Assembly (NCBI GenBank): GCA_045586565.1
Contig: JAZNAO010000006.1
Coordinates: 1,457-65,456 of the forward strand
Source of the DNA: Candidatus Enterousia sp.
Lineage (GTDB): Bacteria > Pseudomonadota > Alphaproteobacteria > Rs-D84
Length of the DNA stretch: 64,000 nt
Direction: 5' to 3'
Part shown: positions 34,061 to 56,376 of the stretch, in pieces
Layout: each line of letters opens with the position of its first letter
Position numbering within the stretch: the stretch's first letter is position 1
Translations under genes and position numbers: made by a program
The notes under the pieces: generated by a model
Database searches by the model: none
What the model was told of the DNA's origin: nothing
What the model saw: the letters and a program-made list of their open reading frames with translations, nothing else

Positions 34061-34061
34061 A

Positions 34062-34358: not shown

Positions 34359-35102
34359 ATGCAAAAATTTTTAAAACTAACCGGCGTATCAGTTTTGGCA
34401 ATCGTTGCCGCAACGGGCGCCAATGCCGCGGGATACACCTGTGAAGAATTGATTGAATACACAGCATGTAATGATGGGTGGTATTTAAACGATGGTGATT
34501 GTATAGAAAGCACAACATGTCCATCGGGCAGTTATTTACGTCCGTTTTGTTCAGTGAGCGATTGTGGTGTGAGTTATGATTCTGAGACCGAAGAATATAC
34601 TTGTTGTGATGGTGATTATGTTGCAAACCTGGAATGCATACAATGCCCATCTGTTGGTCTGACTGACAAAGACGGCAAAGTGGTGTCGGTTAAATCACAG
34701 CCTGGCTCAATGGGTGTTGGTTCGTGCTATATTGACCCGAATGCATATTTCAAGGATAGCACGGGGACATATCATTATAAGTCCAATTGTTCTGTGCGTT
34801 TCTGGGAAACATCCCCAGACACAGAAGAAGAATGTACCAGTCTTGGTTTTGAATGGGTATATACAAGTGGTGAATCAGATTCTTATTATGTTTGTGCGTT
34901 GAACATGCGGATTAGTGAACAGTTGGGTTTAATAAAGACAGAAGAAGAATGTAACGCGGCAGCTGAAAAAATATATGGCTTGGTATGGAAAGATGAAGGA
35001 GATTATTATTATTCCAGATGCGAAACCATAAACTACGAAGAGAGTTACTTTATTTTTAGGGATGAATGGTATGTTTTTGGTGATCCTATTTCTCACTCCT
35101 AA
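34359..35102 (+). CDS. Secreted Cys-rich repeat protein, paralog 1 (248 aa).
   Basis: Signal peptide MQKFLKLTGVSVLAIVAATGANA. AGYTCEELIEYTACNDGWYLNDGDCI is near-identical to paralog 3. CxxCP..GLTDKDG module; 20 Cys. Confidence 0.8.
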   Translation: MQKFLKLTGVSVLAIVAATGANAAGYTCEELIEYTACNDGWYLNDGDCIESTTCPSGSYLRPFCSVSDCGVSYDSETEEYTCCDGDYVANLECIQCPSVGLTDKDGKVVSVKSQPGSMGVGSCYIDPNAYFKDSTGTYHYKSNCSVRFWETSPDTEEECTSLGFEWVYTSGESDSYYVCALNMRISEQLGLIKTEEECNAAAEKIYGLVWKDEGDYYYSRCETINYEESYFIFRDEWYVFGDPISHS

Positions 35103-35107
35103 AATAA

Positions 35108-35134
35108 AAAATCCCGCAATCGCGGGATTTTTTA
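35108..35134. terminator. Bidirectional terminator between the Cys-rich gene and convergent fabZ.
   Basis: ATCCCGCAATCGCGGGAT followed by TTTTT. Confidence 0.7.
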
Positions 35135-35569
35135 AACTGCCTTTTGTAATACTGCGGTAAAGGTTGATTCTGCGACCTTTTTACCACCCACAAATGCAAT
35201 TCCGTGGAATTTATACAATTTCATCTTGGTCATCAATAATTCAACATGCAATTCCAACTTATCGCCCGGGTGCACCATATGTGAAAACTTAATCTTTTCC
35301 ATTGTGGTAAAATACCCCAATGTATCTTTGCGTTCCGCCTCTGACAGACGCGCAAACGCAACATAGCATGCGGTCTGGGCCAACGCTTCGATTTGCAATA
35401 CGCCCGGCATAATCGGATTGCCAGGAAAATGGCCCGTGCACCAGAATTCGTCATCGCGGACATATTTTACACCAACCGCACTGGTGTCATTATATTCACG
35501 AATTTCGTCCACCAACCGCATGTCCCCGCGATGTGGTATAACTTTTTCGATTTCTTTTGCATCAATCAT
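35132..35569 (-). CDS. fabZ: 3-hydroxyacyl-ACP dehydratase FabZ.
   Basis: Hot-dog fold with HFPGNPIMPGVL motif; 145 aa. Confidence 0.9.
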   Translation of the reverse strand: MIDAKEIEKVIPHRGDMRLVDEIREYNDTSAVGVKYVRDDEFWCTGHFPGNPIMPGVLQIEALAQTACYVAFARLSEAERKDTLGYFTTMEKIKFSHMVHPGDKLELHVELLMTKMKLYKFHGIAFVGGKKVAESTFTAVLQKAV

Positions 35570-35742
35570 TCGATATTCCTTTCCTATTATTTTTGTTTAG
35601 ACAACATCCAACTTTCAATTATAATTTTTGTCTGTGGTTTTAACAATTGATTATCAGTTTGCATTTTTTGCAAAATGCGTTTTGGTGGATAAATATAAAT
35701 AATATTTTTATTTCTATTGTCTATCATTTTTGTGTGAATTGC

Positions 35743-36786
35743 TTATTTCTTGGCGTTTTTACGCAACCATGCATAGTGACGCATAAATTCGGTTCCCGGA
35801 CCCGCCGGATATCCCATATGTGATTCGCCGTCTGGGATATTGCGGAAAACACCACTGTTCGCACCAACAGATGCGTCGTTTCCAATCTTAACACCGTTTG
35901 CGACACCAACATGCCCACCCAATAACGCGCGGTCACCAACAACCACACCACCCGCCAGGCCAACGCCACTGGCCAAGAAACATTCTTTACCAATAACAAC
36001 CCCGTGTGCAATCTGGCACAGGTTATCAATTTTTGTTCCGTCGCCAATTGTTGTGTCTGTCATTGCGCCACGATCAATACATGTGTTTGCGCCGACCGAT
36101 ACGCGTTCGCCAATAACAACGCGCCCAACATGTGGGATAAATATATTTTTACCATTTTGGCGTGTGTATCCAAAACCGTCTTTGCCAATAACTGCATTTG
36201 CATTTATCACAGAATCTGCGCCAATTGTGGCGTTTTCAATATGCGCGCCACTGTGCACGATTGTATTGCGCCCCAAAACAACATTGCGTCCGATAAATGC
36301 GCCTGGATAAATCTTGACCCCGGGTTCAATCGCCGCGCCACGTTCAATTGTTGCAAATTGCCCGACATAATTTGTGCGTTTTTTGCGGAAAAATACACCA
36401 CGGTCCAGGTGTGCGTTCTTGCTGATACCAAAGCGTGGTTTTTCGCGATAAATTTCACCCAAAATTTTAACGATATTTCCGCGTGGGCTGTCTGTAATCA
36501 ACAGTGTGGCACCCTTTGGCGCATGTTTTGCCATTTCTGGCTGTACCAAAATCACGGTTGCGCGTGTTTTCTGTAAAACTTCAATTGGTAATATTTTGAA
36601 CGCATTGCTGTTTTGTTCTGTGGAATAGAACGCCAATTGCCCCGCACGCGCATCGGCAATCGGCGCCACCCCGCGCACAGGTTCGCTTGCATTACCGCGT
36701 AATTCCAGACCAAATTTGGTCGCCAAAGCCCCGGCTGTGGTTTTGTTTGCCGCCGGTGAAAACAAAGATCTTAATATTTTCATCAT
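35743..36786 (-). CDS. lpxD: UDP-3-O-acylglucosamine N-acyltransferase LpxD.
   Basis: Left-handed beta-helix hexapeptide repeats with an LpxD-type N-terminal domain. Start placed at MMKILRS; the ORF-track start at 36825 adds 13 unlikely residues. Confidence 0.9.
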
Positions 36787-36967
36787 AGTGAACCGATTAT
36801 AGATAAAAAAAATTCTATATTCCACAATTTTATGACATGTATTTTTTTCTTGTAATTTTGCGATTCGTATATATAATAAAAGACGTTCTTAAATAAAATT
36901 TTAAGGGCGGGGTTGAAAAACCCCGCTCTTTCAGTAAGACATACAATAAATGCAAAGGAGTATATAA

Positions 36968-38506
36968 ATGTCTTTCGTATCGATGCCTCGTCAAGACTTG
37001 TTGTTGGCTATTGATTCTTTGGCCACAGAAAAGATGATTGATCGTGAAATTGTTATTGAATCATTAGAGGCGGCAATCGCTAAAATTGCAAAGCACAAAT
37101 ATGGCGAAGAGTTTAATATCACTGCTGAAATTGATCGCAAAAATGGTGCAATTTATGTAAAACGTTTGTTTGATGTAATTGAATCGCCTGAATCTGTTGG
37201 TGAAGAATATGATGCAAACACAATGTTGACTGTGGCCCAGGCAAAAAAATACTCACAAAATCCATCTGTGGGCGATGTTGTCGAAGATTCTTTGCCAGAA
37301 CCAGAATTTGGTCGTATGGCATTCCAAACGGCAAAGCAAATTATGACTGCGCGCGTTCGTGATGCAGAAAAAGGTCGTCAATATGAAGAATTCAAAGATA
37401 ATATCGGTGATATCATCAGCGGTGTTGTTAAACGCATCGAATTTGGTAATGTTTTTGTTGATATCAATGGCAAGGCCGAAGGTTATATCAAAAGCACAGA
37501 ATTGATTCCTGGTGAACGCTTGGCGGTTGGCGATCGTGTTCGTGCATTGATTATGGATGTTGCACGTTCTAATACAGGTCCCCAGATTTTCTTGACGCGC
37601 ACACATCCAATGTTTATGGAAAAATTGTTTGTCCAAGAAGTGCCTGAAATTTACGAAGGTATCATTAAAATTAAATCTGTATCACGTGCGCCGGGGTCCC
37701 ACGCAAAGATTGCGGTTGAAACCAGCGACCCATCAATTGATGCGGTTGGTATGACTGTTGGTATAAAGGGAACACGTATTCAACCTGTTATCAACGAATG
37801 CCACGGTGAAAAGATTGACGTTATATTGTATTCCGAAGACCCTGCTGTATTTATCGTAAATGCGATGCAGCCTGCCAAGGTCGCTAAAATCATCGTTGAC
37901 GAAGATACACGCAGTGCGGCTGTTGTTGTAAATGAAGATCAACAGTCTTTGGCAATTGGTCGTCGTGGTCAGAATGTTCGTCTGGCGTCTCAATTGACGG
38001 GATGGAATATTGATGTTATGAACGAAACCGAAGAACAAGAACGTCGTGCCAAAGAATTCAAAGAAAAGACAGAACTGTTTATCGGTGGTCTGGACGTTGA
38101 TGAAATGATTGCGCAATTATTGATTACCGAAGGTTTCCGCACAATCGAAGAAATCGCATTTGTTGATATTTCTGAATTGGAAGAAATCGAAGGCTTTAAC
38201 CCAGAATTGGCGGCAGAATTACAGAAACGCGCCAAAGATTATCTGAACAAAATCGAACAAGATTATATTGATAATGGTCATGCGCTGGGTATGTCTGATG
38301 ATTTGTTGAAATTTGACTTTATCAAGCGTCCAACAATCATGAAACTGGGCCAGGCCGGCATCAAATCATTGGAAGATTTGGCAGATTTGGCCACAGATGA
38401 ATTGATTGAAATCTTGGGCGAAGATACAATGTCTAATCGTTTGGCAGGGCGTGTTATTATGAAGGCACGTGAAATCGCATACGATATTAAACAGGACGAC
38501 GAATAA
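36968..38506 (+). CDS. nusA: Transcription termination/antitermination factor NusA.
   Basis: N-terminal domain, S1 domain, two KH domains and C-terminal acidic repeats. Confidence 0.95.
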   Translation: MSFVSMPRQDLLLAIDSLATEKMIDREIVIESLEAAIAKIAKHKYGEEFNITAEIDRKNGAIYVKRLFDVIESPESVGEEYDANTMLTVAQAKKYSQNPSVGDVVEDSLPEPEFGRMAFQTAKQIMTARVRDAEKGRQYEEFKDNIGDIISGVVKRIEFGNVFVDINGKAEGYIKSTELIPGERLAVGDRVRALIMDVARSNTGPQIFLTRTHPMFMEKLFVQEVPEIYEGIIKIKSVSRAPGSHAKIAVETSDPSIDAVGMTVGIKGTRIQPVINECHGEKIDVILYSEDPAVFIVNAMQPAKVAKIIVDEDTRSAAVVVNEDQQSLAIGRRGQNVRLASQLTGWNIDVMNETEEQERRAKEFKEKTELFIGGLDVDEMIAQLLITEGFRTIEEIAFVDISELEEIEGFNPELAAELQKRAKDYLNKIEQDYIDNGHALGMSDDLLKFDFIKRPTIMKLGQAGIKSLEDLADLATDELIEILGEDTMSNRLAGRVIMKAREIAYDIKQDDE

Positions 38507-38581
38507 AATGTTATCAGTGCAAGGTTCATAATTTGAACTTTGCACTTTGAACTTTTAACATTATGAACGGAGTGAATTTAT

Positions 38582-40990
38582 ATGGCAACATTAACACTTG
38601 GAAAATCTGTAACAACTGACGCGGTCCGCAGCAAGAAAGGCGACGCGGTGTTCGTTGAACGCCGTCGTCGTGTTGTTGCACCAAACAGCAAGGAATTACG
38701 CGATGAACCTGTTGTGCCATCTGCACCCAAAAATGCTGCAGATGAAAAATTGCGTGCTGTTTTGGCGGCGGCCAAGGCGCGTGAAGAAGAACGCAAAGCA
38801 CGCGAAGCCGAAGAGGCAGCTGCGGCTGCTGCGCGTGCCGCAGAAATTGAACGTGAAAACCGCGAATATGAACAGGTTAAATCACAATTGGCGGCCCGCG
38901 AAAACGCAGGTGCTAATGTGAACGATGTTGCCGAAGAACCTGTGGCGCAACGCAACACAAAACATTCTGCCACGCCAAAGGTGTTTGTGAACAATGCTGT
39001 CGCAGGACAGGGGCGTAAAAATCGCAATAATGACGATGAAGATACGCACCATAATAAATTCAACAATTCAAAAAAAGATTTTAAAAAGTCTGGTAAAATT
39101 CATTTGCATGATATTGTTATGGGCGATGGTGATGATGACGATGAAATTGGGATTCGTGGTGCAAATCGTCGCCGTTCCGAAGCGTCTTTAAAACGTTTTC
39201 GTGAAAAAGCACGTGCAATATTTTCTGCCCCACAAAAGGTTGAACATGTTGTCACATTGGGTGATACGATTACGGTCAAAGACCTGGCGGCGGCAATGGC
39301 AGAAAAGGTTGGTAATGTTATCAAGAAACTGATGGAAATGGGAATGATGGTGTCTGTGAATCAGTCTATTGATGCGGATACTGCTGAACTTATCGCGGGT
39401 GAATTTGGTGCGACCGTTAAACGTGTTGATGTCAAACCATATGCAGACCAACTTGAACGCGAACCGAATCCAGAAAATCTGACACCACGTGCGCCAGTTG
39501 TGACGGTTGTGGGACACGTTGATCACGGCAAGACATCATTGCTGGACGCGTTCCGTAATGCTAATGTTGCGGCCGGCGAAGCAGGGGGTATTACCCAACA
39601 CGTATCATCGTATGAGGTTAAAACAAAATCTGGCGCAATGATTACGTTCTTGGATACACCGGGTCACGAAACATTTACAGCAATGCGCGCACGTGGTGCC
39701 CAGATGGCAGATATTGTTGTTTTGGTTGTTGCGGCAAACGATTCCATTATGCCACAAACAATCGAAGCAATAAATCACATCCGTGCGGCGAACGTTCCGT
39801 TTATAGTTGCAATCAACAAAATCGATTTACCCGAAGCAAATGCGTTGCGCGTAAAAACAGACCTGTTGCAACAAGAAGTTCAGGTTGAAGAAATGGGTGG
39901 TGATGTTCAATGTGTTGAAATTTCTGCAACCAAAAAAATCGGTTTGGATAAACTGGAAGAAGCGATTTTATTGCAGGCCGAAATGATGGAATTAAAAGCA
40001 GATGCACAAATGCCTGCGGTTGCATATGTGGTCGAAGCCAAACAAGAAAAAGGTTTGGGGGCGGTTGCAACTGTTTTAATGCGCCAAGGTACATTGAAAA
40101 TTGGTGATGTGTTTGTGGTTGGTGAAACATTTGGTCGTGTTCGCGGATTGATAAATTCGTCTGGTGAACGCGTGAAATCTGTGCGCCCTGGTCAGCCTGC
40201 GGTTGTTTTGGGATTGAATACCGTGCCAGGGGCTGGGGATGAATTGCGTGTCATGGAAACCGAAGCGCAAACACGTGAAGTGGCGGCATATCGTGCCCAG
40301 AAAACTAAAGACAAGGCAAACGCTGTTAAACGTTCGTCTTTGGAAGAATTATTCGCCAAACGTGACGAAACGAAAAAATTGATTTTGCCAATAATCTTGC
40401 GTGCAGATGTTCAAGGTTCTGTCGAAGCAATTACAGATATGGTCAAAGAAATAAATACTGATAAGGTCGGTGTAGAAGTTCTGTCGTCTGGTGTTGGTCA
40501 AATTACCGAAGGTGATATACGTTTGGCAACGGCATCTGGGGCTGTAATTATTGCGTTTAACGTCCGTGCAGATTCTGTTGTGCGTGATATGGCACGCAGT
40601 AATGGTGTTGATATTCGCTATCACAGTGTTGTATATCGTATCACAGATGAAATCAAAGAAATACTGTCTGGCAAATTGGCGCCTGAAAAACATGAAACGT
40701 TTATTGGGTATGCCGATGTTATCGCGTTGTTTACTGTGGGCAAGGGTATACGTGTTGCCGGATGTCGCATGACCGAAGGTGTAATCAAGAAAGATGCGTT
40801 CGTACGTTTGTTGCGTAATAATGTCGTTATATATGACGGCAAAATCGGACAACTGCGTCGTGAAAAGAACGAAGTCAAAGAAGTGTCTGGTGGCGTTGAA
40901 TTCGGTATGTCTTTTGACAAGTATAATGACTTGAAAGAAGGCGACCGCGTTGAATGTTACGAGGTTGAAGAAGTTCGTGCACAAATATAG
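38582..40990 (+). CDS. infB: Translation initiation factor IF-2.
   Basis: GTPase motifs [14 protein letters not shown] and NKID. Lys/Ala/Glu-rich N-terminal region. Confidence 0.95.
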
Positions 40991-41005
40991 CCCAAGGATA
41001 AATAA

Positions 41006-41602
41006 ATGTTAAAAAAAACCACAGTCGTTTTGTTCGATTTTGATGGCACATTATCATGTCGCGATTCAAATGTTGCATTTGCAAAATATTGTTTCCGCCA
41101 CAGTATTCGTCCATGGTTTTTTCTGCCGCTGATGGGTGTATGCGCGATATCGCGTTTGTTTGTGCCTGATGGTATTTGGTGGCGTGAAAACATTCGTCGT
41201 TTTTTGACACCGCAAATGGTTAAAAAATTTGCGCCTGGATTTATCAAACAGCATAAATTGGAACGATTTGGGTGGGCCAAAGAACGTGTGCAATCTGAAC
41301 GTGATGCTGGTCACAAGGTTTTAATGGTTTCGGCCAGTCCTGATTACCTGTTGCGTCCATTGGTTCGCGATATGAAATTCGATGCGGTATTTTGTTCTGA
41401 AATGGACAAGCAGAAACCATGGAAATACGAATTTTTATGCTGGGGTAAAAACAAGGTTTTGATTATGGACGAATGGGCCAAAGAAAATAAAATTATTCCA
41501 CATGTAATTCGTGCATATTCGGACAGCAAATCAGATTTACCAATGATGGAAATCGCCGAAGAACAGGTCTGGATTGATCCGAAAACAGGTATGCGAAAAT
41601 AA
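41006..41602 (+). CDS. HAD-superfamily (subfamily IB-like) hydrolase.
   Basis: Motif I FDFDGTLS; motif IV YSDSKSDLPMM. Confidence 0.6.
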   Translation: MLKKTTVVLFDFDGTLSCRDSNVAFAKYCFRHSIRPWFFLPLMGVCAISRLFVPDGIWWRENIRRFLTPQMVKKFAPGFIKQHKLERFGWAKERVQSERDAGHKVLMVSASPDYLLRPLVRDMKFDAVFCSEMDKQKPWKYEFLCWGKNKVLIMDEWAKENKIIPHVIRAYSDSKSDLPMMEIAEEQVWIDPKTGMRK

Positions 41603-41642
41603 ACCCAGTGTTTTAATTATTTGTTCGTGTTAAAGTGTTTCT

Positions 41643-41900: not shown

Positions 41901-41929
41901 TTGCAAATATATATTTTTTGTCTTAAAAT

Positions 41930-43984: not shown

Positions 43985-44052
43985 TTCGTATAATACCATT
44001 TGTTTATTCAAAGTTTTGTGATAGAATGTTTGCATAAGGAAAGGATTTTATT

Positions 44053-47363: not shown

Positions 47364-47364
47364 A

Positions 47365-47397
47365 AAAAAATTCCGGTGTTGCCGGAATTTTTTATTT
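47365..47397 (+). terminator. Intrinsic terminator after murG.
   Basis: TTCCGGTGTTGCCGGAA followed by a T tract. Confidence 0.7.
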
Positions 47398-47452
47398 TCT
47401 GCTTGCGTGCGATTCGTCATTTGTTCTATGATGCAAATGGAAGGAAAGGAAA

Positions 47453-48733
47453 ATGCGTCATATTACAATCAGTATATTGTCTGCACTGGTTACTGTGCCT
47501 GCGTTTGCAGCGGCGGGGTTGCCAGTGGTAAACATTGCGTCTGGCGGTGTTTCTGCGCGCAGTGCGTTTGGCGAATCGGTTCCTGTGGAACGCGGTGTTT
47601 CTGTTGCGCCTGTGGTGCAAAATATTGCAACGCGTCCTGTTGTTGCGCGTGTTTCGACAATAAAACCTGTGGCGCCATCTGTTGATACTGGTGATACAAT
47701 TATTTCGTCAAACGATGTCTTGATGCCTCGTCGCCCCAGTGCTGATTTGTGGGCCAAGAATGATGTGGCGTTACGTATGCCAACACCTGATGAATTTTCC
47801 GTTATTCGGACTGATACAGTTTTACCAGAGGAGAGACTGGACCAACAATCATCACAACAATTTGCAATCAGTTCGCCGTCACCTGATGTTGTATCACGTG
47901 AATCGGTCGCGATGTCTGAAATTGATAATCAGATTGTGCGCTTGGCGCAATTGCAGCAACGTGCCGATGACAGTGTCCGTAATGTTTCGCCGCGTGTAAT
48001 TGCGGCACCGATTGCGGAAATGAAAACCGTCGCACCAACCGCAATCGCATCAAATGAATCTGCAAATGTATCGTCACCTGTATCGTTACGTCGTATGGTT
48101 GTTCCGATGGAAACGCCAGATGTTGTGGTGCGCAGTGTTGAAAAAAATATTTCGCCACGTATTGCATCTGTCCGTGACGATATGACAAAAATGACCCCGG
48201 CCCAGTTGCGCCAGGCGTTCAGAAAAACTTTTTTGTCAGAAAACAAGCATTTGTCCACATATTCTGTTGACGATCGATTTGATGTGGCCAGTGATATGTC
48301 GTCGTCTATCGAAGGCTTTACTGCGCGTCGTAATTTGTCTGAAACCGGTGGCATTCGCGCATTAGAAATCAAAATAAATTTCCGCAACGATGATTCTTCA
48401 TTGTCGCGTGATAATTATAATCTGTTATCAGAATACGCGGGTATTGTCATAAATGATCCAAAGCGTGCGATTCAGATTGCAATACCACAAGGTATGACTG
48501 TGGGAACGGATACGCGTAAATTGGCAGCGCGTCGTTTGGCAATTGTTGAACAAGTCTTGACAGATAACGGTGTATCAAAACAGCGTATTGTTCCTGTATT
48601 GTCATCGCGTAATGAACAGGGTTTTGTTCTGCGTATTATATCCAGTGATGAATACGAAACATTGACCCAGCAAAAACACGATATTTTCGGTGACACGGTT
48701 GGGAAAAAGACTTATAAAAGTATGTCGTGGTAG
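47453..48733 (+). CDS. Hypothetical secreted protein with a possible OmpA-like C-terminal domain.
   Basis: Signal peptide MRHITISILSALVTVPAFAAA. Ser/Val-rich middle region. C-terminal ...AARRLAIVEQVLTDNGVSKQRI resembles OmpA/MotB peptidoglycan-binding domains. Confidence 0.45.
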   Translation: MRHITISILSALVTVPAFAAAGLPVVNIASGGVSARSAFGESVPVERGVSVAPVVQNIATRPVVARVSTIKPVAPSVDTGDTIISSNDVLMPRRPSADLWAKNDVALRMPTPDEFSVIRTDTVLPEERLDQQSSQQFAISSPSPDVVSRESVAMSEIDNQIVRLAQLQQRADDSVRNVSPRVIAAPIAEMKTVAPTAIASNESANVSSPVSLRRMVVPMETPDVVVRSVEKNISPRIASVRDDMTKMTPAQLRQAFRKTFLSENKHLSTYSVDDRFDVASDMSSSIEGFTARRNLSETGGIRALEIKINFRNDDSSLSRDNYNLLSEYAGIVINDPKRAIQIAIPQGMTVGTDTRKLAARRLAIVEQVLTDNGVSKQRIVPVLSSRNEQGFVLRIISSDEYETLTQQKHDIFGDTVGKKTYKSMSW

Positions 48734-49449
48734 AATTAGTTCGTGTATTTATTGAATTTTTGTTTCCGCCGGCGTGTCCACTGTGTGATACGCCGGTATC
48801 AATTCATGGTGAATTATGCGGCGATTGTTGGTCTGCGATGAGTTGGATATCTGGTGCGCATTGTGCGTGTTGTGGTTATCCATTTCCATTGGAATTAGAT
48901 TTGCCGGATGGTGCCATGTGTCCGGTATGCGCATCTGGGAAAAATGAGTTGGATTGGATTCGTTCTGCGTGCGTATATGATGACGTTTCACGTTCGGCAA
49001 TGTTGCCGTTTAAACATGGTGGTCGTGTCGGTTATGCGCGATTTATGTCGCGTGCAATGATTTGGGCATTGCGCGATGTAAATGTTGATGCAGATATTGT
49101 TATGCCGGTGCCATTGGCGCGTGGTCGATTGTTTAAACGCGGTTATAACCAGGCAACATTATTGGCGCGCCCAATTGCGCGTGCGTTGGGTGTAAAAATG
49201 GATGTTGATTCTGTGCGTCGTAAATATCGCCCAGATATGGGGCATAAAAACGCACGTCAACGTGCAGAAAATATCCATGGTGTGTTTACTGTGGTAAATC
49301 CAGATGTGATACGTGGTCGGAAAATTTTGTTGGTTGATGATGTTATGACAACAGGTGCAACATTTGCAGAATTGCGTCGCGTTTTAATGCGTGCAGGTGC
49401 GACAGCGGTATACGGCGTGACATTTTGTCGCGTTGCACACGCGGTTTAG
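48727..49449 (+). CDS. comF: ComF-family phosphoribosyltransferase.
   Basis: N-terminal double CxxC zinc finger (CPLCD...CGDCW, CACCGY...CPVC). C-terminal PRTase motif VLLVDDVMTTGAT. Confidence 0.8.
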   Translation: MVELVRVFIEFLFPPACPLCDTPVSIHGELCGDCWSAMSWISGAHCACCGYPFPLELDLPDGAMCPVCASGKNELDWIRSACVYDDVSRSAMLPFKHGGRVGYARFMSRAMIWALRDVNVDADIVMPVPLARGRLFKRGYNQATLLARPIARALGVKMDVDSVRRKYRPDMGHKNARQRAENIHGVFTVVNPDVIRGRKILLVDDVMTTGATFAELRRVLMRAGATAVYGVTFCRVAHAV

Positions 49450-49889
49450 TTATATGTGTATTCTGATGTAAGTCTTACGATTCTGTTTTTTAACAATTGC
49501 ATTTCTTGTTGTATAACGCGTTTGGAACACGCATCAAAGATATTGATAATTTCCTGTTCGCGTGGCGTAAATATTCTGCGGTTTGCAGATACCGTCATAT
49601 GTGCAATATCTTCTTCATATGCGGTGTCTTCTTCATATATCATAATCGTATATAATACATCGGTGGATCCGTTTGGGGTTTCAAAGAAATCGCGCGCCAT
49701 TTCTATATATTTGTCGCCCACGATGCATATTTTGTATATAATTGCACCTTGTTCATGCAGTGTACTGATAACACTGCTGTCGATCAGCGAATGAATCATC
49801 GGTATTGCATCTTCGGATAATGGTAAAAAATCTTTGTCTATTGTCGCCATGTTGGTTTTAATGATAGATACAAAAAAAACAGTTGTCAA
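49446..49889 (-). CDS. Hypothetical protein (147 aa).
   Basis: ORF only. A LuxR-like C-terminus was considered but the alignment is poor. Confidence 0.3.
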   Translation of the reverse strand: MTTVFFVSIIKTNMATIDKDFLPLSEDAIPMIHSLIDSSVISTLHEQGAIIYKICIVGDKYIEMARDFFETPNGSTDVLYTIMIYEEDTAYEEDIAHMTVSANRRIFTPREQEIINIFDACSKRVIQQEMQLLKNRIVRLTSEYTYN

Positions 49890-50001
49890 GTTTTTGTTTT
49901 GTGACCAATATACATCGTGTTTTTGTCTGATTTTCTTGAATTCTGAATTTAATCTGATACGATAAATGTCAGGTTATTTTTTACAAAACAGGACAACAGA
50001 T

Positions 50002-52404
50002 ATGAATATAGAATTGGGTAAAAATATTGCACCGCGTGAAATAGAAACCAGAATCCAAGAATTTTGGGATAAAAATGATTTCTGGGCAAATGATGTCCAT
50101 TCGGATAAGACACCATTTTGCATTATGATGCCACCGCCAAATGTTACGGGTAATTTGCATATGGGGCATGCGTTGGATAATGTTTTAACAGATATTATGT
50201 GCCGTTACAAACGTATGTCTGGCTTTGACGTTTTATGGCAGCCTGGAACCGACCACGCATCAATTGCCACCCAATTGTTGGTTGAACGCGACTTGTCAAA
50301 GCGTGGTATAAATCCGCATGCATTATCATTACAGGAAAAACTGGATTATGCCTGGGCGTGGAAGGCGGACAAAGGTGGCCAGATTTTAAATCAGTTACAC
50401 ATTTTGGGTGTAACACCGGTATGGAAACGCGAAAGATTTACGATGGACGATGGCTTGTCCAATGCGGTGACAAAACTGTTTGTAAAAATGTATAACGAAG
50501 GTTTGATTTATCGTGAAAAGCGTCTTGTAAACTGGTGCCCAAAACAGCAAACATCTGTTTCTGACCTGGAAGTTGAAACCCGTGATGAGCACGGCAAGTT
50601 TTATTACTTTAATTACCAATTGGTTGATGGCGGTGTGGTTGAAATTGCGACAACCCGTCCGGAAACACTGTTTGGCGACCAGGCGATTGCGGTTCATCCA
50701 GAAAACGAGAAGTTAAATCATCTTATTGGGCGCAAGGCGATTATTCCATTGACTGATATTGAAATTCCAATTATCGGTGATGAACACGCGGACCCAGACA
50801 AGGGGACAGGTGCGGTTAAAATTACACCGGCGCATGACTTTGACGACTGGGAAGTTGGCGTTCGTCATAATTTGACACCGGTTTGTATTTTGACCCCAGA
50901 TGCGAAATTAAATGACAACCCGGTGGTTCCAGAAAAATACCGTGGCATGGACCGATATGCAGCACGTGCCGCAATTGTGGCTGATATTGATGCGGCGGGC
51001 CTGTTGGTAAAAATCGAAGACAAGGTTATCCCAACACCGTATTCTGAACGTGCCCAGGTTCCTGTAGAGCCATATTTAACAGACCAGTGGTTTGTTGATG
51101 CGGAAAAGTTGGCAATACCTGCGATAAAGGCAGTCGAAGATGGTAAAATCAAATTCTTGCCAGAACACAGATATAACCTGTTTATGGCGTGGATGAAAAA
51201 CATTCGTCCATGGACTATTTCGCGTCAGTTATGGTGGGGACATCATATCCCGGCGTGGTATGATGCGGATGGTAATGTTTATGTTGCCGAAACCGAAGAA
51301 GCGGCGATTGCGCAATCTGGTGGCAAAACATTGACCCGTGACCCAGATGTATTGGATACGTGGTTTTCGTCTGGTCTGTGGCCATTTTCAACATTGGGTT
51401 GGCCTGAACAGACATTGGAATTAGCAAAATATTATCCCACAGACTTACTATACACCGGCGCAGATATTATCTTTTTCTGGGTTGCGCGTATGATAATGAT
51501 GGGATTGTATGTGATGGGCGACGTTCCGTTCCGGACGGTAAATTTCCACGGTCTGGTTCGTGATTCAAAGGGGCAAAAGATGTCCAAGACCAAGGGAAAT
51601 GGCACAGACCCATTGACTGCGGTTGATAAATTTAGTTCGGACGCCTTGCGTTACTGGATTGCGACCGCGCCAATTGGTACCGATATTCGTTATTCTGATG
51701 ACGAAGTTAAACGTGGTTCAAAACTGCTGACTAAATTATGGAATGCGTCGAAATATGTGTTGATGAATTTATCAGATTTTGAACCAGAAACTGCGAAACA
51801 AATTCCTGTATCAGAACGCTTTATCGAAGACAGATGGGTATTATCTGAATTGAACAAAGCGATTGCAGAAACCAGAAAGCATTTGGATAAATACGATAAC
51901 TATAATTCACGTGCTGCAATTGATACGTTCTTTTGGGATATATTCTGCGACCAGTATCTGGAATTTATCAAAGACCGTTTTTGGGCGCCTGAAAAATACA
52001 GTGCGGAATCTAAATTATCTGCCCAGTGGACATTATATACGGTATTGCGTGCGATAATTGGTCTGTATGCGCCGTTTATCCCATTCCTGACCGAAGAATT
52101 ATGGCAGAAAATTTATAAACCATTCGAAGGTGGCGAAACATTGCATCTGACGTTATATCCGTCTGTTCAATCAGAATATGATACAGATGTTTCAACGATG
52201 GATGTTGCGCTGGAAATTTTGAAAAATATCCGTGGCCTGCGCACAGAACGTAAGGTTGGCAACGGTGCAAAACTGGAAACGTTGACGATTCCATCGGATA
52301 CGCCGGATGTTTTGCATGGCTTGATAAAATCTGCGGCACGTGCAAATGAAATCCTTTTGGGTGACGCATTGGATTTTGTTGTCGCCCAGAATGTTCAAGG
52401 ATAA
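50002..52404 (+). CDS. valS: Valine--tRNA ligase (short, ~800 aa, as found in reduced alphaproteobacterial genomes).
   Basis: HIGH-type motif PNVTGNLHMGHA and KMSKS-type motif KMSKTKGN. Start at MNIELGKN (50002). Confidence 0.85.
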   Translation: MNIELGKNIAPREIETRIQEFWDKNDFWANDVHSDKTPFCIMMPPPNVTGNLHMGHALDNVLTDIMCRYKRMSGFDVLWQPGTDHASIATQLLVERDLSKRGINPHALSLQEKLDYAWAWKADKGGQILNQLHILGVTPVWKRERFTMDDGLSNAVTKLFVKMYNEGLIYREKRLVNWCPKQQTSVSDLEVETRDEHGKFYYFNYQLVDGGVVEIATTRPETLFGDQAIAVHPENEKLNHLIGRKAIIPLTDIEIPIIGDEHADPDKGTGAVKITPAHDFDDWEVGVRHNLTPVCILTPDAKLNDNPVVPEKYRGMDRYAARAAIVADIDAAGLLVKIEDKVIPTPYSERAQVPVEPYLTDQWFVDAEKLAIPAIKAVEDGKIKFLPEHRYNLFMAWMKNIRPWTISRQLWWGHHIPAWYDADGNVYVAETEEAAIAQSGGKTLTRDPDVLDTWFSSGLWPFSTLGWPEQTLELAKYYPTDLLYTGADIIFFWVARMIMMGLYVMGDVPFRTVNFHGLVRDSKGQKMSKTKGNGTDPLTAVDKFSSDALRYWIATAPIGTDIRYSDDEVKRGSKLLTKLWNASKYVLMNLSDFEPETAKQIPVSERFIEDRWVLSELNKAIAETRKHLDKYDNYNSRAAIDTFFWDIFCDQYLEFIKDRFWAPEKYSAESKLSAQWTLYTVLRAIIGLYAPFIPFLTEELWQKIYKPFEGGETLHLTLYPSVQSEYDTDVSTMDVALEILKNIRGLRTERKVGNGAKLETLTIPSDTPDVLHGLIKSAARANEILLGDALDFVVAQNVQG

Positions 52405-52408
52405 AATC

Positions 52409-53137
52409 ATGGCTGATAAACTGATTGAAAAACGTGTCCTGCAGGCATATCAGTGTGACCGATTTGGTAACGTTCGTCCACTGATTTTGATGAATGAATT
52501 GCAATCTATTGCCGACCGTCATGCAGAAATTTTGGGGTGTGGTCGCACATATTGCCTGGCCAATAATGTTGGTTGGGTTGTGATGTATTACCTGGTCGAT
52601 ATTGTTGAATTACCACGCGAAGGCGAAGAACTGACATTTGCCACGTGGCCATCGTGCCAAGATGCCCTGCGTGCGACACGTGACTTTGAAATTCATGGGT
52701 CTGACGGTCGTTTAATGGTTCGTGCCACGTCCCAGTGGATATTGATTGATATGTCGCGTCGTCGGCCTGTGCCATTGGCAAACCATCTGTCGCCAGACGT
52801 TGTTGTGCCACACCGTGCATATGGTTGTGCATTTGAAAAGTTTCCGGACTTTGAAACGACCAAGACACATGTTATGAAATGTCGCTTTGATGACATTGAT
52901 GTGAATCAGCATATAAATAATGCGGTTTATGCGGTCTGGGCGACCGAAAGTGTCGGATATAAATATCGCACAGAACACAAATTGAAAAAGATAGATATTT
53001 GTTTTAAAAAGGAAGTGAGTCTGGACATCCCAGAAATTTGCATTGATGTTGCGATTGATGGTCTGGTGTCACGTCACAAGATTCGCAGTGGCGACACCGA
53101 ACACGCGGTTGTCATTTGTCATTGGGAACAAATATAA
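52409..53137 (+). CDS. Acyl-ACP thioesterase-like hot-dog protein.
   Basis: Length and organisation resemble acyl-ACP thioesterases (PF01643). AAGGA ribosome-binding site before ATG 52409, immediately after the valS stop. Confidence 0.5.
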   Translation: MADKLIEKRVLQAYQCDRFGNVRPLILMNELQSIADRHAEILGCGRTYCLANNVGWVVMYYLVDIVELPREGEELTFATWPSCQDALRATRDFEIHGSDGRLMVRATSQWILIDMSRRRPVPLANHLSPDVVVPHRAYGCAFEKFPDFETTKTHVMKCRFDDIDVNQHINNAVYAVWATESVGYKYRTEHKLKKIDICFKKEVSLDIPEICIDVAIDGLVSRHKIRSGDTEHAVVICHWEQI

Positions 53138-53163
53138 AATCCCCGCCACCCGGCGGTTTTTTC
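53138..53163 (+). terminator. Intrinsic terminator.
   Basis: CCGCCACCCGGCGG followed by TTTTTT. Confidence 0.7.
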
Positions 53164-53205
53164 AGCGACAAATAATAATGATACTATGGACTGGATTGCC
53201 ACGTT

Positions 53206-53282
53206 CGTTTCACTCCCTCGCGATGACAAGAATCACAGATTCTTGTAAAAATAGTTGTATAACTAAACTTTTATTTATCGCG
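53206..53282 (+). repeat. Repeat element copy E.
   Basis: CGTTTCAC..CGCGATGACAAGAATCacagGATTCTTGTAAAAATAG...AAACTTTTATTTATCGCG, with terminal CGCGAT/ATCGCG inverted repeats. The promoter of leader L2 follows directly. Confidence 0.7.
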
Positions 53283-53298
53283 GTATTCTATTTACCTG

Positions 53299-53327
53299 TT
53301 GACCTAAAATTTTAATATTGATAAAAT
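53299..53327 (+). promoter_or_regulatory. Sigma70-type promoter of leader L2.
   Basis: TTGACC, 17-nt spacer, TAAAAT. Confidence 0.7.
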
Positions 53328-53567
53328 CCTTTTGTCGGTGAGATTTTTCACCGATGGGGTGTAACGACCCGTGCGATAGCGTCTGTGCGATATTTGCGCC
53401 CAGATGAAATTACTCCTGATCTATTCGTGGTCAGGAGGGCTTGTGAATAATGCGTCCGCGCAAAATCAACAGCACAATTCTATCGATTGTCGTTAACCTC
53501 CTGACCACCTGACTTATAAAACGGTGGTTTTTATTTGATAAAACGCAAAGGAAAGGGAGAGTTTTAT
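53328..53567 (+). promoter_or_regulatory. Conserved structured 5' leader L2, the divergent copy.
   Basis: Same helix set as L1 and L3 with different loops. P1 TCGGTG/CACCGA, hairpin CTCCTGA-tctattcg-TGGTCAGGAG, perfect 12-bp antiterminator GTGGTCAGGAGG/CCTCCTGACCAC, terminator CCACC...GGTGG followed by TTTTT (53504-53534), ribosome-binding site GGAAAGGGAG. Confidence 0.6.
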
Positions 53568-55040
53568 ATGAAAAAGTTTTTTGGTTACACTGTATCAATA
53601 ATGGCAATTTTTGTGGCAAATAATGCATCCGCGGCAGACGGATATACATGTGAAACCAGTCGTGTGTTTACATCGTGTGGTGCAGGTTGGTATTTACAGG
53701 AATCTGTTGCGGGCTCTGGCGAAGGTACGTGTTATGAATGTCCAACCAACTTTAAGAGTGGGGCTGCTGGGATTGTTGGCAAAGATAACTGTGTGGGAAA
53801 TATTGCCGCGGGATATTATTATGACAAGGAAAATGAGACGCGAAAAACATGTCCACAAGGTGCGTCGTATTTTTGCCCAGGGGTATCGAATATTACATAT
53901 GGTAATGCCAGTCGTTCGACAACAACAACCCCGTGTTATGACCCGTCTAATCCAAATGCGATGACGGCAGGATTAAAGAATGTAATTGGTTATAGTAATA
54001 TAACGCGCCTAGAATTGGGTTCATATGGTATTCCAGAAGGTGTTCAGGTAATTACATGGAAACCTGTTGTGGTAAATAGTGGCGGGGCCAGTTCGTATGA
54101 ACATTGTGCCTTTGATTGGACTCAATCAACAAATAATTATAAAATACAGATAATCCCACAAAACAGCCTTACAGGGTCTGGGGTGGCCACTTTAAACATA
54201 ACATCATGCAGCAGTGGACAATTATCGTCGGTTCGAAATGTTAAATTTAATGAGATTGATATTACAACTGGTGGCAGTCCCTTGTTCTCAACAGGATGTG
54301 CCGGCTGTGGCGAAGGTAAGTATTTAAAGTCTGGTGCAACGGAGTGCAGTGCTTGTAACATTCATGATGCGTTGGGCTTGGATACCAGTGTGACAGCAAT
54401 ATGGCAATCTGGTCTGGCTGAAAGCACTGTGGGCTCTTGGGTTTGTCCGTATCGCTTTGAAACGCTTCCTGTTGAAAATGGTGTTGCCACGGGTATATCG
54501 TGCTCGATGACCGATGTCGCCAATGGTACATACAGTTGTCGCTTGTCCCTGGATATAGGACAACTAGGGTGCGATGCGGGTTATATATTGCAAAATGCGG
54601 ACATGACATCCGAAACATTGATTAACTGTGGTGGCCAGGATAATTCGTATGGACAGTCTGTAAATGCTGATACTGATCTTGCAATTGGGCTAGAAATTTT
54701 GACACCGTCAAACTTAAAATGCGTGCCGACACGTATGGGGTGCTATCAGCCAAACGGTCAGGATGAATTTGCAGAAATTACAAACGCTGCGGACTTGATT
54801 ACAGCATTGACTGGCAAGCCTTGTGGCGATGGTAATTATTGTGACAAATCTGCATCTGCGGAACAGACTGCGTGTCCTGCGGTTAAATTGTTCATGCGCG
54901 AAGATGGCAGTGCGGTCAACATGATGTCGGCCGATTATGCAGACGATGCGGCAGACTGTTATGTTCCAGCCAACCCAGATATCTTGTACAAGGACGGAAA
55001 TGGAAACCTGTTCTATCTGGAAAGCAAGTGTGGCTACTAA
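53568..55040 (+). CDS. Secreted Cys-rich repeat protein, paralog 2 (490 aa).
   Basis: Signal peptide MKKFFGYTVSIMAIFVANNASA, then DGYTCE... About 40 Cys in CxxC / C-x-C-P-x-G-x-Y patterns. Confidence 0.8.
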   Translation: MKKFFGYTVSIMAIFVANNASAADGYTCETSRVFTSCGAGWYLQESVAGSGEGTCYECPTNFKSGAAGIVGKDNCVGNIAAGYYYDKENETRKTCPQGASYFCPGVSNITYGNASRSTTTTPCYDPSNPNAMTAGLKNVIGYSNITRLELGSYGIPEGVQVITWKPVVVNSGGASSYEHCAFDWTQSTNNYKIQIIPQNSLTGSGVATLNITSCSSGQLSSVRNVKFNEIDITTGGSPLFSTGCAGCGEGKYLKSGATECSACNIHDALGLDTSVTAIWQSGLAESTVGSWVCPYRFETLPVENGVATGISCSMTDVANGTYSCRLSLDIGQLGCDAGYILQNADMTSETLINCGGQDNSYGQSVNADTDLAIGLEILTPSNLKCVPTRMGCYQPNGQDEFAEITNAADLITALTGKPCGDGNYCDKSASAEQTACPAVKLFMREDGSAVNMMSADYADDAADCYVPANPDILYKDGNGNLFYLESKCGY

Positions 55041-55041
55041 A

Positions 55042-55068
55042 AAATCCCCCTTTTGGGGGATTTTTTTG
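55042..55068 (+). terminator. Intrinsic terminator.
   Basis: AAAATCCCCCTTTTGGGGGATTTTTTT. Confidence 0.75.
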
Positions 55069-55127
55069 AGATACGAGATATGAGACATGTGACAGGAATA
55101 TTTATCAATGTGTCCTTATTTTATTTA

Positions 55128-55156
55128 TTGACGTAAATTCTTAAAACTGATAAAAT
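55128..55156 (+). promoter_or_regulatory. Sigma70-type promoter of leader L3.
   Basis: TTGACG, 17-nt spacer, TAAAAT. Confidence 0.7.
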
Positions 55157-55428
55157 TCTTTTGTCGATGGGATTTTTCATCGATGGGGTGTCAAGACCCG
55201 TTTCATTGGCGTTCATGCACGATTGCATAACACGCCATGTGGCGTATTTTTTATGCGATATGTGTATGGGTGATAAATTACTCCTGACCCGTGGTCAGGA
55301 GGGCTGTGAATATATTGAATAAGCACACAATTCCAATGATTGTCTTGAACCTCCTGGCCACCTTTTGTGAAAAACGGTGGTTTTTTGTTTATTTTGGCAA
55401 ACAAAACAAAGGAAAAGGAGAGTTTGTT
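55157..55428 (+). promoter_or_regulatory. Conserved structured 5' leader L3.
   Basis: Near-identical to L1. P1 carries a compensatory change (TCGATG/CATCGA versus TCGGTG/CACCGA). Terminator CCACC...GGTGG followed by TTTTTT (55349-55377); ribosome-binding site GGAAAAGGAG. Confidence 0.6.
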
Positions 55429-56376
55429 ATGAAAAAAATTTTATTGAGCGGTGCGTCAATCCTGGCAATTATCGCCACCACAAACGCAAATGCCGCCGGA
55501 TATACCTGTGAAGAATTGATTGAATATACATCGTGTAATACGGGATATTATCTAAATGATGGTGATTGTATCCCGGGCAATACATGCCCTGCCGGGAATT
55601 ATTTACAAGGTGTATGTCCAGATGGGTATGAGTATTCTGACACTTGGAGCGTTGAGAATGGTGCAATTGTTTGGGTTAACAATATTACACAAGCAGAGTG
55701 TGAAAATGAAGGAGACTACTGCACTTGGTACGGCGCAGGGTGCCTTATTACAGATGCGGATCCATTTATGGTGGACGATGGATTTATTTCGGCGACAGGA
55801 TATGAATGCACTGCGTGCGCGGCTGGTTCATATCAACCATCTGCGGGTCAATATGAATGTATAACATGTCCGGCGGGGGCATATTGCGGAACGACCGGAT
55901 TGTCCGCTGTATCTGGCCAGTGTGCCAAGGGGACTTATTCGCATGGTGGTGCTGTATCATGTGCCGCATGTCCGGCGACGGGACTGACCGATAAAGATGG
56001 TGCGGTTGTTGTTGCAACAACGCCGACGGCTGGTGCAACGACGATCTCGTCGTGTGTAATTGATGATACGGTTTATTTCAGGGATACCAAAGGTGTATAT
56101 CGTTACAAACAGGATTGTGTATTGCTTGGTGATATAACAGGCACTAACGCTGCAGAGTGTGAATGGGTGGCAGAAATAACCGGTGAAGATTGGAATATGT
56201 TTAATGATGCTTGTAGTTTTAATACCGAAGGAACAACGATTTTGGCACCAGCGACAGAATCTGAATGCCTTGATTTAGGTGGTGATTGGGACACTTATTT
56301 TGAAGAAGGAAAATGCCATTGTGATGGTTGGGTGTGGTATATTAAAGAAGGAAAATTGATGTGTGGGACAGTATAA
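55429..56376 (+). CDS. Secreted Cys-rich repeat protein, paralog 3 (315 aa).
   Basis: Signal peptide MKKILLSGASILAIIATTNANA. AGYTCEELIEYTSCNTGYYLNDGDCI. Ephrin-receptor/furin-like repeats such as YECTACAAGSYQPSAGQYECITCPAGAYC. CxxCPATGLTDKDG module. Confidence 0.8.
   Translation: MKKILLSGASILAIIATTNANAAGYTCEELIEYTSCNTGYYLNDGDCIPGNTCPAGNYLQGVCPDGYEYSDTWSVENGAIVWVNNITQAECENEGDYCTWYGAGCLITDADPFMVDDGFISATGYECTACAAGSYQPSAGQYECITCPAGAYCGTTGLSAVSGQCAKGTYSHGGAVSCAACPATGLTDKDGAVVVATTPTAGATTISSCVIDDTVYFRDTKGVYRYKQDCVLLGDITGTNAAECEWVAEITGEDWNMFNDACSFNTEGTTILAPATESECLDLGGDWDTYFEEGKCHCDGWVWYIKEGKLMCGTV

Follow-up and report, generated by a model that had tools for sequence, protein, structure and literature searches.

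We analysed a 64,000-nt stretch of DNA from Candidatus Enterousia sp. (GCA_045586565.1, contig JAZNAO010000006.1, forward-strand positions 1,457 to 65,456; hereafter the window), in which three genes for exported cysteine-rich proteins, here called p1, p2 and p3, lie between positions 34359 and 56376 (Table 1). The three open reading frames (ORFs) recorded by a first-pass annotation were exact, intact and real, with each ATG behind a GGAG-type ribosome-binding site (RBS). The Sec signal peptides and the A(A/D)GYTCE mature start described there were also recovered: read from the sequence, in all three signal peptides a K-rich n-region precedes a hydrophobic h-region and an AxA site, with predicted cleavage at ANA↓AGYTCE in p1 and p3 and at ASA↓ADGYTCE in p2. 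BLASTP confirmed that the proteins form a paralogous family (E 1.5e-32 for p1-p3, 5e-10 for p1-p2 and 3e-8 for p2-p3), and tblastn of the window revealed no fourth copy. Because each gene has its own promoter and the gene upstream ends in its own terminator, p1, p2 and p3 are independent transcription units.

Table 1. Window coordinates of the three genes and their associated elements (CDS, coding sequence; N-tag, conserved mature N-terminus; T1 and T2, terminators within the leader).
Feature	Coordinates	Strand	Description
p1 promoter	34062..34090	+	TTGATT, 17-nt spacer, TG-extended TAAAAT; promoter scan and alignment with 14 family genes from other contigs
p1 leader	34097..34358	+	~262 nt; conserved centre between regions 2 and 3
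p1 hairpin A	34097-34118
p1 hairpin B	34119-34135
p1 T1	34163-34185		terminator-like; in helix C
p1 region 1	34213-34221
p1 region 2	34228-34237
p1 region 3	34286-34298
p1 region 4 and U-run	34309-34318		T2
p1 RBS	34345-34350
p1 CDS	34359..35102	+	247 aa, 16 Cys; no ephrin-like repeat; variable C-terminal part
p1 signal peptide			aa 1-23
p1 N-tag	34428-34487		aa 24-43
p1 module 2	34635-34790		aa 93-144
p1 intrinsic terminator	35103..35133	+	directly after stop codon; AAAAAATCCCGCAATCGCGGGATTTTTT, read from sequence
p2 promoter	53299..53327	+	TTGACC, 17-nt spacer, TG-extended TAAAAT; motif search and alignment
p2 leader	53334..53567	+	~234 nt; short helix C without T1; centre with an extra inserted hairpin between regions 2 and 3
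p2 hairpin A	53334-53355
p2 hairpin B	53356-53372
p2 region 1	53413-53421
p2 region 2	53429-53438
p2 region 3	53497-53509
p2 region 4 and U-run	53523-53532
p2 RBS	53555-53560
p2 CDS	53568..55040	+	490 aa, 26 Cys; divergent subfamily
p2 signal peptide			aa 1-22
p2 variant tag			aa 23-43; ADGYTCETSRVFTSCGAGWYL
p2 Cys-containing sequence			~390 aa; no domain assignment
p2 module 2, degenerate	54873-55031		aa 436-488
p2 intrinsic terminator	55041..55067	+	AAAATCCCCCTTTTGGGGGATTTTTTT, terminator scan; separates p2 from the p3 unit
p3 promoter	55128..55156	+	TTGACG, 17-nt spacer, TG-extended TAAAAT, 10/12 consensus positions; promoter scan
p3 leader	55163..55428	+	~266 nt; centre between regions 2 and 3
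p3 hairpin A	55163-55184
p3 hairpin B	55185-55201
p3 T1	55229-55252		in helix C
p3 region 1	55281-55289
p3 region 2	55293-55302
p3 region 3	55350-55362
p3 region 4 and U-run	55376-55386
p3 RBS	55416-55421
p3 CDS	55429..56376	+	315 aa, 24 Cys
p3 signal peptide			aa 1-22
p3 N-tag	55495-55554		aa 23-42
p3 variable Cys region			after the tag
p3 ephrin-receptor-like repeats	55801-55962		two, ~aa 117-178
p3 module 2	55960-56118		aa 178-230
p3 C-terminal Cys domain			after module 2
p3 intrinsic terminator	56377..56401	+	AAAAACCGCCGATTGGCGGTTTTTT, read from sequence

Comparison of the proteins showed that p1 and p2 have in common only the 20-residue mature tag AGYTCEELIEYTSCNxGYYL (the N-tag) and a second conserved segment (module 2). 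The latter had been noted as a common CP..GLTDKDG...YF.D..G.Y.YK..C module; it was clear in p1 and p3, but in p2 it was reduced to a degenerate C-terminal remnant (E 5e-6 to p1), and the N-tag of p2 was ~50% identical to those of p1 and p3. Across about 150 homologs most tag positions showed at least 90% conservation, against ~40% identity in the rest of the proteins, and the cleavage context (N/G)ANA↓A was found in 117 of 150. The family architecture consisted of the signal peptide, the tag, a variable Cys region, none to several ephrin-like repeats, module 2 and a variable C-terminal Cys domain. Cys made up 5.5-9.5% of residues in the 150 members, and the mature part had an even Cys count in 139 of them (P = 2e-29), which fits full disulfide bonding of extracytoplasmic proteins. 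These features are consistent with Sec-exported, disulfide-bonded proteins. No signal peptide of p1, p2 or p3 ends in a lipobox ([LVI][ASTVI][GAS]C); their first Cys lies 5-6 residues past the AxA site in the context G-Y-T-C, and Pfam and NCBIfam scans found no outer-membrane anchor, beta-barrel, lipobox or secretion-system signal. The closest relatives of p1 were P0113 (70% identity) and P0104 (62%), both from other genomes. p2 is a rare divergent subfamily: a search of 5.8 billion proteins returned only two homologs, and its ortholog (L019:16461-17939, in a genome of the type of the metagenome-assembled genome (MAG) IKB10) is preceded by the same leader.

The dense ephrin- and TNFR-type repeats ascribed to all three proteins were present in p3 but not in p1 or p2, for which no Pfam or NCBIfam match was obtained. 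With membership in PF07699 (Ephrin_rec_like) defined as an hmmscan score above the curated gathering cut-off of 23.1 bits, p3 matched over two stretches (E 5.3e-12, 45.8 bits), and the p3 peptide originally quoted as an example, YECTACAAGSYQPSAGQYECITCPAGAYCG, is present and gives a significant match; p1 and p2 had no PF07699 match at E ≤ 1. The suggested TNFR_c6, Furin-like and Giardia VSP affinities did not hold, as none of the three proteins matched these models at E ≤ 1, and p3 scored below the cut-offs of TNFR_ELAPOR1_6th (23.1 vs 33.2) and NCD3G (18.2 vs 38.9). Among the homologs, 56 of 96 matched PF07699 at E ≤ 1e-3. The N-tag, module 2 and the C-terminal domain matched no Pfam or NCBIfam model.

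Structure prediction, which had been proposed as a check, yielded a confident AlphaFold2 model of p3 (pLDDT 84.5) outside residues ~20-50, a segment that includes the tag. The model superposed on the Cys-rich domains of ELAPOR1, mastigoneme, Eph and TNFR proteins, as expected of a TNFR/ephrin-receptor fold; its structural neighbours were exclusively eukaryotic or viral Cys-rich domains, Foldseek recovered the same families, and the sole PDB sequence match of p3 was Mst1 (E 1.2e-5). The eukaryote-type character claimed for the Cys repeats was upheld for p3 and the repeat-bearing homologs. The p2 model, built from three sequences, was unusable (pLDDT 35.5). The ephrin-receptor-like domain is treated as eukaryotic, and its rare bacterial cases are ascribed to horizontal transfer (PMC6993872). 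A homolog search with the p3 repeat segment alone returned no relatives. A high-GC metagenome contig (L003:1146-3740) encodes an 864-aa protein made largely of Ephrin_rec_like-type repeats, which looks eukaryote-like (algal or protist) and, apart from the repeats, unrelated to the family; the closest relatives that the repeat has beyond the family thus do not come from this bacterial lineage.

The likeness of p1 and p3, which lie 21 kb apart, had been read as recent gene conversion or duplication of their 5' parts, with near-identity over the first ~35 mature residues. The similarity was confirmed but not its extent, which was 27 residues, 23 of them identical, at 79% nucleotide identity. Recent homogenisation of the leader, signal peptide and these residues would account for this block and for the ~81% leader identity, against ~45% for the rest of the proteins. 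It is contradicted by the nonsynonymous (dN) and synonymous (dS) divergence, which was 0.16 and 1.36 over 49 aligned codons and 0.125 and 1.21 over the 27 conserved mature codons (overall dN 0.13-0.16, dS 1.2-1.4); among 63 aligned codons, 44 encoded identical amino acids, and 16 of these differed synonymously. No converted tract could be delimited, as the longest exact run between promoter and codon 60 was 26 nt and lay in the leader rather than the CDS, and the longest within the CDS tag was 23 nt. Moreover, the first 141 nt of p1 were 76% identical to p3 and 74-87% identical to paralogs of other genomes, with P0031 and P0104 (another genome) nearer than p3. Where the N-terminal region of p1 departs from p3, it coincides with its ortholog-like relatives P0113 and P0104, following P0113 residue for residue, and the tag is conserved across the whole family. 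Recent conversion or duplication is hardly credible in the face of these data. The high dS, the short exact runs and the family-wide conservation of the tag indicate that the p1/p3 likeness is old and maintained by strong purifying selection on a family-wide 5' cassette.

This cassette begins upstream of the coding sequences. The likeness of the leaders had been noticed earlier and was confirmed (79-81% identity over 330 nt among all three genes), but that account had missed a structured, switch-like RNA belonging to every family gene. Promoter and leader could be aligned across 15 distinct genes, and the promoters followed the near-consensus pattern TTGAnn-17 nt-TGnTAAAAT. The leader opens with the 9-bp hairpin A (variants UCGGUG/CACCGA, UCGAUG/CAUCGA and UUGAC/GUCAA) and with hairpin B, followed by the 7-bp helix C, in which several positions are changed on both sides and which encloses a variable insert; in about 10 of 14 leaders this insert is the canonical terminator T1. 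An A-rich linker then leads to regions 1-4. Region 1 (CUCCUGAYC) and region 3 (CCUCCUGGCCACC) are each complementary to region 2 (GUGGUCAGGAGG), and region 4 (GGUGG), with U5-7 after it, pairs with the 3' end of region 3. Applied to the 15 distinct leaders, RNAalifold predicted helix 2:3 as the closing helix of a three-way junction that contains two internal hairpins.

From the 15-leader alignment we built a covariance model, which identified 17 true copies in 254 kb, with scores of 108 bits for p1 (34205-34320), 91.7 bits for p2 (53405-53534) and 122.9 bits for p3 (55273-55387). Wherever a family gene had upstream sequence, the p2 ortholog included, the model matched 5' of it, and in the window it returned the three expected copies only. 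Besides family genes, the only match in the 254 kb was to one small ORF with helix-turn-helix (HTH) resemblance: a weaker 'AACC'-type leader (54.8 bits, 11236-11347) at L009:11021-11347 (minus strand; also on L008 and L010) stands before a 60-aa ORF between tRNA genes that has a sub-threshold HTH_31 match (Cro/XRE-like). This ORF, the sole non-family gene with the leader, could be a regulator within the same regulon; no homolog of it was found in the window. At the gathering threshold, an Rfam cmscan of the whole window returned tRNA-Glu only, and at E ≤ 10 the p3 leader had just spurious eukaryotic matches (E around 3-7). The motif was absent from IMG/VR viral contigs, which argues that the leader is not phage-borne.

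In the model-fitted alignment, 97.9% of cells paired and 12 of 19 pairs were changed on both sides; none of 500 shuffles reached the observed covariation values, and the signal collapsed when the partners were slid. Counted register by register, helices 1:2 and 3:2 were both 9 bp and covaried identically, with positions 5-7 changing together in regions 1, 2 and 3 of the 'AACC'-type leaders (4 of 17 copies). The helices of the 5' domain also covaried. G-U pairs were frequent and non-pairs rare, a bias suggesting that selection acts on the RNA of the sense strand and not on a palindrome in the DNA. Constrained ViennaRNA folding placed the OFF state (1:2 plus 3:4) and the ON state (2:3) within ~3.7 kcal/mol of each other in 14 of 15 leaders (p1: ON -30.8, OFF -29.5 kcal/mol), and such near-equal energies are the signature of a bistable switch. 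The leaders thus combine what is expected of an attenuator sequence: mutually exclusive helices 1:2, 3:2 and 3:4 with U5-7, covariation for both alternatives and comparable stability.

Other readings of the leader were rejected. For trp-type attenuation by a leader peptide, small ORFs cover region 1 in some leaders, with neither start codon nor frame conserved; CsrA-type GGA sites and T-box and ANTAR signatures were likewise not conserved in the leaders; and a second promoter in the leader centre would have poor hexamers and a transcript beginning just before the terminator. A 124-aa ORF on the minus strand (33798-34172), which annotation pipelines could call, overlaps the p1 promoter, hairpins A and B and T1, and is most likely spurious. 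Downstream of many unrelated genes we observed a stereotyped terminator, AAAATCCCCC-N4-GGGGGATTTTTT (window 33758-33781 and 55045-55059; L009:9735-9760), which also follows most family genes in other loci; it may be bidirectional, given its A-tract/T-tract symmetry, and seems to be the standard terminator of these genomes.

Strain-level variation was seen at one site, where two contigs of the same species, L013 (one sample) and L021 (an IKB10-type MAG), carry different family genes. The flanking proteins were 94-100% identical (most 98-100%) and the flanking DNA ~99-100%, whereas the family proteins, of 372 and 328 aa, were 49% identical overall and 43% beyond residue 47. The divergent block was sharply bounded, running from leader hairpin B (~240 nt 5' of the ATG) to immediately past the gene's terminator, and independent assemblies confirmed that each allele is linked to the same flank downstream. 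An intragenomic donor was considered and rejected, the nearest known paralogs being just 53-64% identical. The difference resembles the exchange of one complete expression cassette for another, and one of the junctions falls where the leader is most conserved.

The position of this junction, at hairpins A/B, could suggest that the leader repeats act as DNA, as a site of site-specific recombination, an invertible promoter or a cassette-exchange site, and not as an RNA switch. Multigene surface families are often phase-variable, regions 2 and 3 form 10-12-bp inverted repeats around a conserved 55-nt segment, and hairpin A is a 7-8-7 palindrome. However, none of about 25 independently assembled copies was in inverted orientation, a 55-bp invertible segment would be unusually short, and no copy had a recombinase gene beside it. 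The repeats tolerate G-U, a mismatch in DNA, but not A-C, and the third copy (region 1) and the U-run are hallmarks of attenuators. Action as a DNA element is accordingly very unlikely in our judgement.

A second alternative is that the 5' cassette is kept uniform mainly by slow concerted evolution among copies, the apparent RNA structure being inherited repeat sequence. The 5' CDS identities within the IKB10 MAG (0.81-0.85) are slightly above most between-genome values, a recombination breakpoint lies inside the leader, and the leader behaves as a genomic repeat: three contigs of other assemblies (L001, L012 and L014) start inside it, 142-145 nt 5' of a family ATG. Since the multi-copy leader breaks short-read assemblies, MAGs probably understate how many copies of the family genes and of the leader a genome has. 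Against concerted evolution stand the near saturation of synonymous sites while amino acids and helices are kept, the compensatory changes across three mutually dependent regions and helices A, C, P-a and P-b, the G-U asymmetry that indicates selection on the transcribed strand, and the balance in energy of two folds in nearly all copies. We consider it quite improbable as the main cause of the uniformity, and retain the RNA switch as the favoured interpretation of the leader.

The family is narrow and expanded. Among 5.8 billion proteins searched, p3 had 156 relatives, all unnamed or labelled 'hypothetical protein [Alphaproteobacteria bacterium]', and an exhaustive HMMER search of 1.84 billion 50%-identity representatives with p1, chosen as a query without ephrin-like repeats, returned only 88 clusters at E ≤ 1e-3, hence the conclusion that the family is narrow. 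The proposed survey for family expansion was positive, with at least 15 paralogs in one MAG (IKB10_ locus tags, 15 of the best 120 p3 relatives). The IKB10 locus tags run to about 04330 in steps of 5, corresponding to roughly 900 genes, and with at least 15 members the family would make up ~2% of the gene content of this MAG. A profile search with the family alignment gave two loci each in genome and metagenome contigs; both metagenome matches were unrelated Ephrin_rec_like proteins, and the genome matches were the ruminant MAGs RGIG5353 and RGIG5256 (sheep colon), the former classified as Alphaproteobacteria; RF32; Rs-D84 (supplement of PMC8199421). The Rs-D84 bacteria (Ca. Enterousia) have genomes of <1 Mb, lack most biosynthesis and probably depend on partner cells, and nothing is known of how they contact a partner (PMC12306168). 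Homologs thus came only from uncultured ruminant-gut Alphaproteobacteria, probably of the reduced-genome RF32/Rs-D84 group, and their distribution points indirectly to Rs-D84 for the organism of the window as well.

Family genes stand singly among housekeeping genes. In the window (42% GC), the neighbours encode a class I aminoacyl-tRNA synthetase, an acyl-ACP thioesterase, GyrA, an inositol monophosphatase, a FabA-like protein, LpxD, NusA and IF2. Two further plus-strand ORFs with signal-peptide-like N-termini and no Pfam match, of 1104 aa (19118-22432) and 426 aa (47453-48733, within an mraY-ftsW-murG cell-wall cluster), lack both the family tag and the leader.

Related tags were also observed in more distant genes. 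A protein of >1915 aa (L022:1-5480, minus strand) begins with a signal peptide followed by the p2-type tag FADGYACSNAMNFVSCGSGFKL and matches Ephrin_rec_like and Flg_new weakly; its gene, without an R1-type leader, is transcribed divergently from the family member P0009. The tag thus marks a wider set of exported proteins. In MAG RGIG5256, a divergent gene pair (L002:2674, minus; L002:3055, plus) carries the related tag A(A/D)GYTCD..Y.EC..GYYLS, with only ~300 nt between the genes and no detectable leader. The covariance model found no leader beside these distant genes of RGIG5256 or the giant protein, and the presence of the tag without the leader in RGIG5256 indicates that the tag is older or more widespread than the leader.

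Taken together, we think it rather probable that p1, p2 and p3 belong to a repertoire of extracytoplasmic proteins that are variable, regulated together and probably located at the surface or engaged in partner interaction, and that they are members of a narrow family of self-contained cassettes with a switch-like leader. Each gene is one cassette composed of a near-consensus sigma-70 promoter, a structured leader with RBS, a signal peptide with tag, and a variable body with a strong terminator. In the body, a conserved beta-rich GLTD...YF.D..G.Y.YK..C module and a C-terminal domain that varies accompany the TNFR/ephrin-receptor-like repeats, of which there are none to several. The near-consensus promoters would give strong expression, gated by the common leader. 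In the predicted OFF state, region 2 pairs with region 1, leaving region 3 free to form the terminator with region 4 and the U-run; in the predicted ON state, region 2 pairs with region 3, which closes the conserved three-way junction and removes the terminator. Termination would be the default, as hairpin 1:2 forms first and the 3:4 terminator follows, with T1 as an earlier checkpoint in most copies, and read-through would occur when an effector favours the junction closed by 2:3 or blocks region 1. We infer that the leader controls the whole family by transcription attenuation, so that expression depends on a ligand or factor as trigger. The invariant tag presumably acts as a sorting or anchoring signal, and the variable bodies would be surface-exposed or secreted and mediate or diversify contact with a partner, host, phage or predator. 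The proteins would accordingly be exported, disulfide-stabilised, rod-like and variable, with a role in partner or host contact or in evasion of phage, immunity or predation. A function in host or partner interaction is plausible, on the circumstantial grounds of the partner-dependent reduced-genome lineage, the family expansion and the strain-level allele replacement.

Several points weigh against this interpretation. Sequence inspection and domain scans identified no anchoring or outer-membrane translocation mechanism, and the proteins could remain in the periplasm; the N-tag region of the p3 model is of low confidence (pLDDT 50-63). Cassette replacement was seen at one locus only, and its upstream junction lies within a repeat, where mis-assembly is conceivable. 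As for the RNA, the covariation alignment was fitted to the model, so the counts lean toward structure; independent covariation events are few, essentially one 'AACC'-type lineage and scattered changes; and T2 is a weak terminator (5-7 bp stem) that a simple terminator scan missed.

The periplasmic possibility deserves separate consideration. The proteins would then be non-exposed, with metal- or redox-buffering, envelope-structural or chaperone-like roles for the Cys-rich chains, and their variability would reflect relaxed constraint. The Sec signal peptide is the only demonstrable export feature, the scans described above gave no outer-membrane or secretion-system signal, and Cys-rich proteins can bind metals. 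However, the even Cys counts and the Cys-rich-domain folds argue for structural disulfides rather than free thiols, and the expansion to ~2% of genes took place in a <1 Mb genome that shed most metabolism. In addition, the same tag occurs on the >1915-aa Ephrin_rec_like/Flg_new repeat protein, which has an adhesin-like architecture, and allele replacement with sharp boundaries, as seen here between near-identical strains, is what exposed loci typically show. We therefore regard a periplasmic, non-exposed role as unlikely and prefer the repertoire of exposed or partner-facing proteins. Going further, we tentatively entertain a more specific proposal, about which our doubts outweigh our confidence: the leader may be a cis-regulatory RNA class not described before (~235-265 nt), with a 5' domain and a bistable switch between three-way junction and terminator, that places at least 15-20 variable eukaryote-like Cys-rich exported proteins, ~2% of the genes of a partner-dependent alphaproteobacterium with a <1 Mb genome, under one signal, the promoter-leader-tag cassette may serve as a homology anchor for body swapping between strains and loci, and the two may jointly constitute a regulated surface-variation or partner-recognition system derived from Cys-rich domains of probable eukaryotic origin.

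The family is an obvious candidate for the partner interface, being exported, disulfide-bonded, built with eukaryotic-type Cys repeats, ~2% of the genome in size and sharply different between near-identical strains. The leader, a well-supported structured RNA outside Rfam, has ON/OFF switch architecture; its natural sequence variants number at least 17, and a new effector or antitermination factor could come to light through it. In annotation terms, a protein family beyond current Pfam and NCBIfam models is defined by the 20-residue tag together with module 2.

Compared with proteins carrying ephrin-receptor-like or TNFR-type domains (PF07699; ELAPOR1, the Chlamydomonas mastigoneme protein Mst1, Eph, CaSR), p3 passes the Pfam threshold at residues ~117-178, and the common trait is a rod-like, disulfide-laddered extracellular module. 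Unlike in those proteins, the repeats here are an optional insert (56 of 96 members; absent from p1 and p2) in a small bacterial protein that additionally has an N-tag, module 2 and a C-terminal domain of its own, and the family is without a transmembrane segment, kinase or other eukaryotic partner domain. Variable surface families with a conserved 5' region include the Mycoplasma vsp/vlp/vsa lipoproteins, the Giardia VSPs and Anaplasma msp2/p44. The present family resembles them in its many paralogs in a small genome, in the conserved 5' untranslated region, signal peptide and N-terminus combined with variable bodies, in allele or cassette replacement between strains and, for the Giardia VSPs, in CxxC-rich repeats. 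In contrast to these families, it lacks a lipobox, and no poly-nucleotide tracts or invertase sites were seen; the p1, p2 and p3 C-termini have neither the hydrophobic (transmembrane) segment nor the CRGKA tail of Giardia VSPs. Each copy has its own strong promoter, instead of a single expression site with silent cassettes, and control is apparently exerted by a common RNA attenuator and not by DNA rearrangement.

With attenuation leaders and riboswitches (the pbuE adenine ON riboswitch, T-box, PyrR and LicT-type systems), the family leader shares the mutually exclusive helices 1:2, 2:3 and 3:4 with the U-run behind them, energetically balanced states, conserved hairpins right after the transcription start and two tandem terminators; its antiterminator helix, like P1 of purine riboswitches, is the one that closes a conserved three-way junction. 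A looser parallel is offered by the phage nut/put elements of processive antitermination. Unlike known riboswitch classes, the leader has no Rfam match at the gathering threshold or at E below 1, and it differs from T-box, ANTAR and peptide leaders in having no conserved leader peptide, T-box sequence or ANTAR-type hexaloops. The N-tag with module 2 and the leader motif are not covered by existing families, and neither is the arrangement of one RNA switch repeated before every member of an expanded secreted family in a <1 Mb genome. The genes it regulates further distinguish it from known attenuators, as they encode secreted variable proteins instead of metabolic or transport functions.

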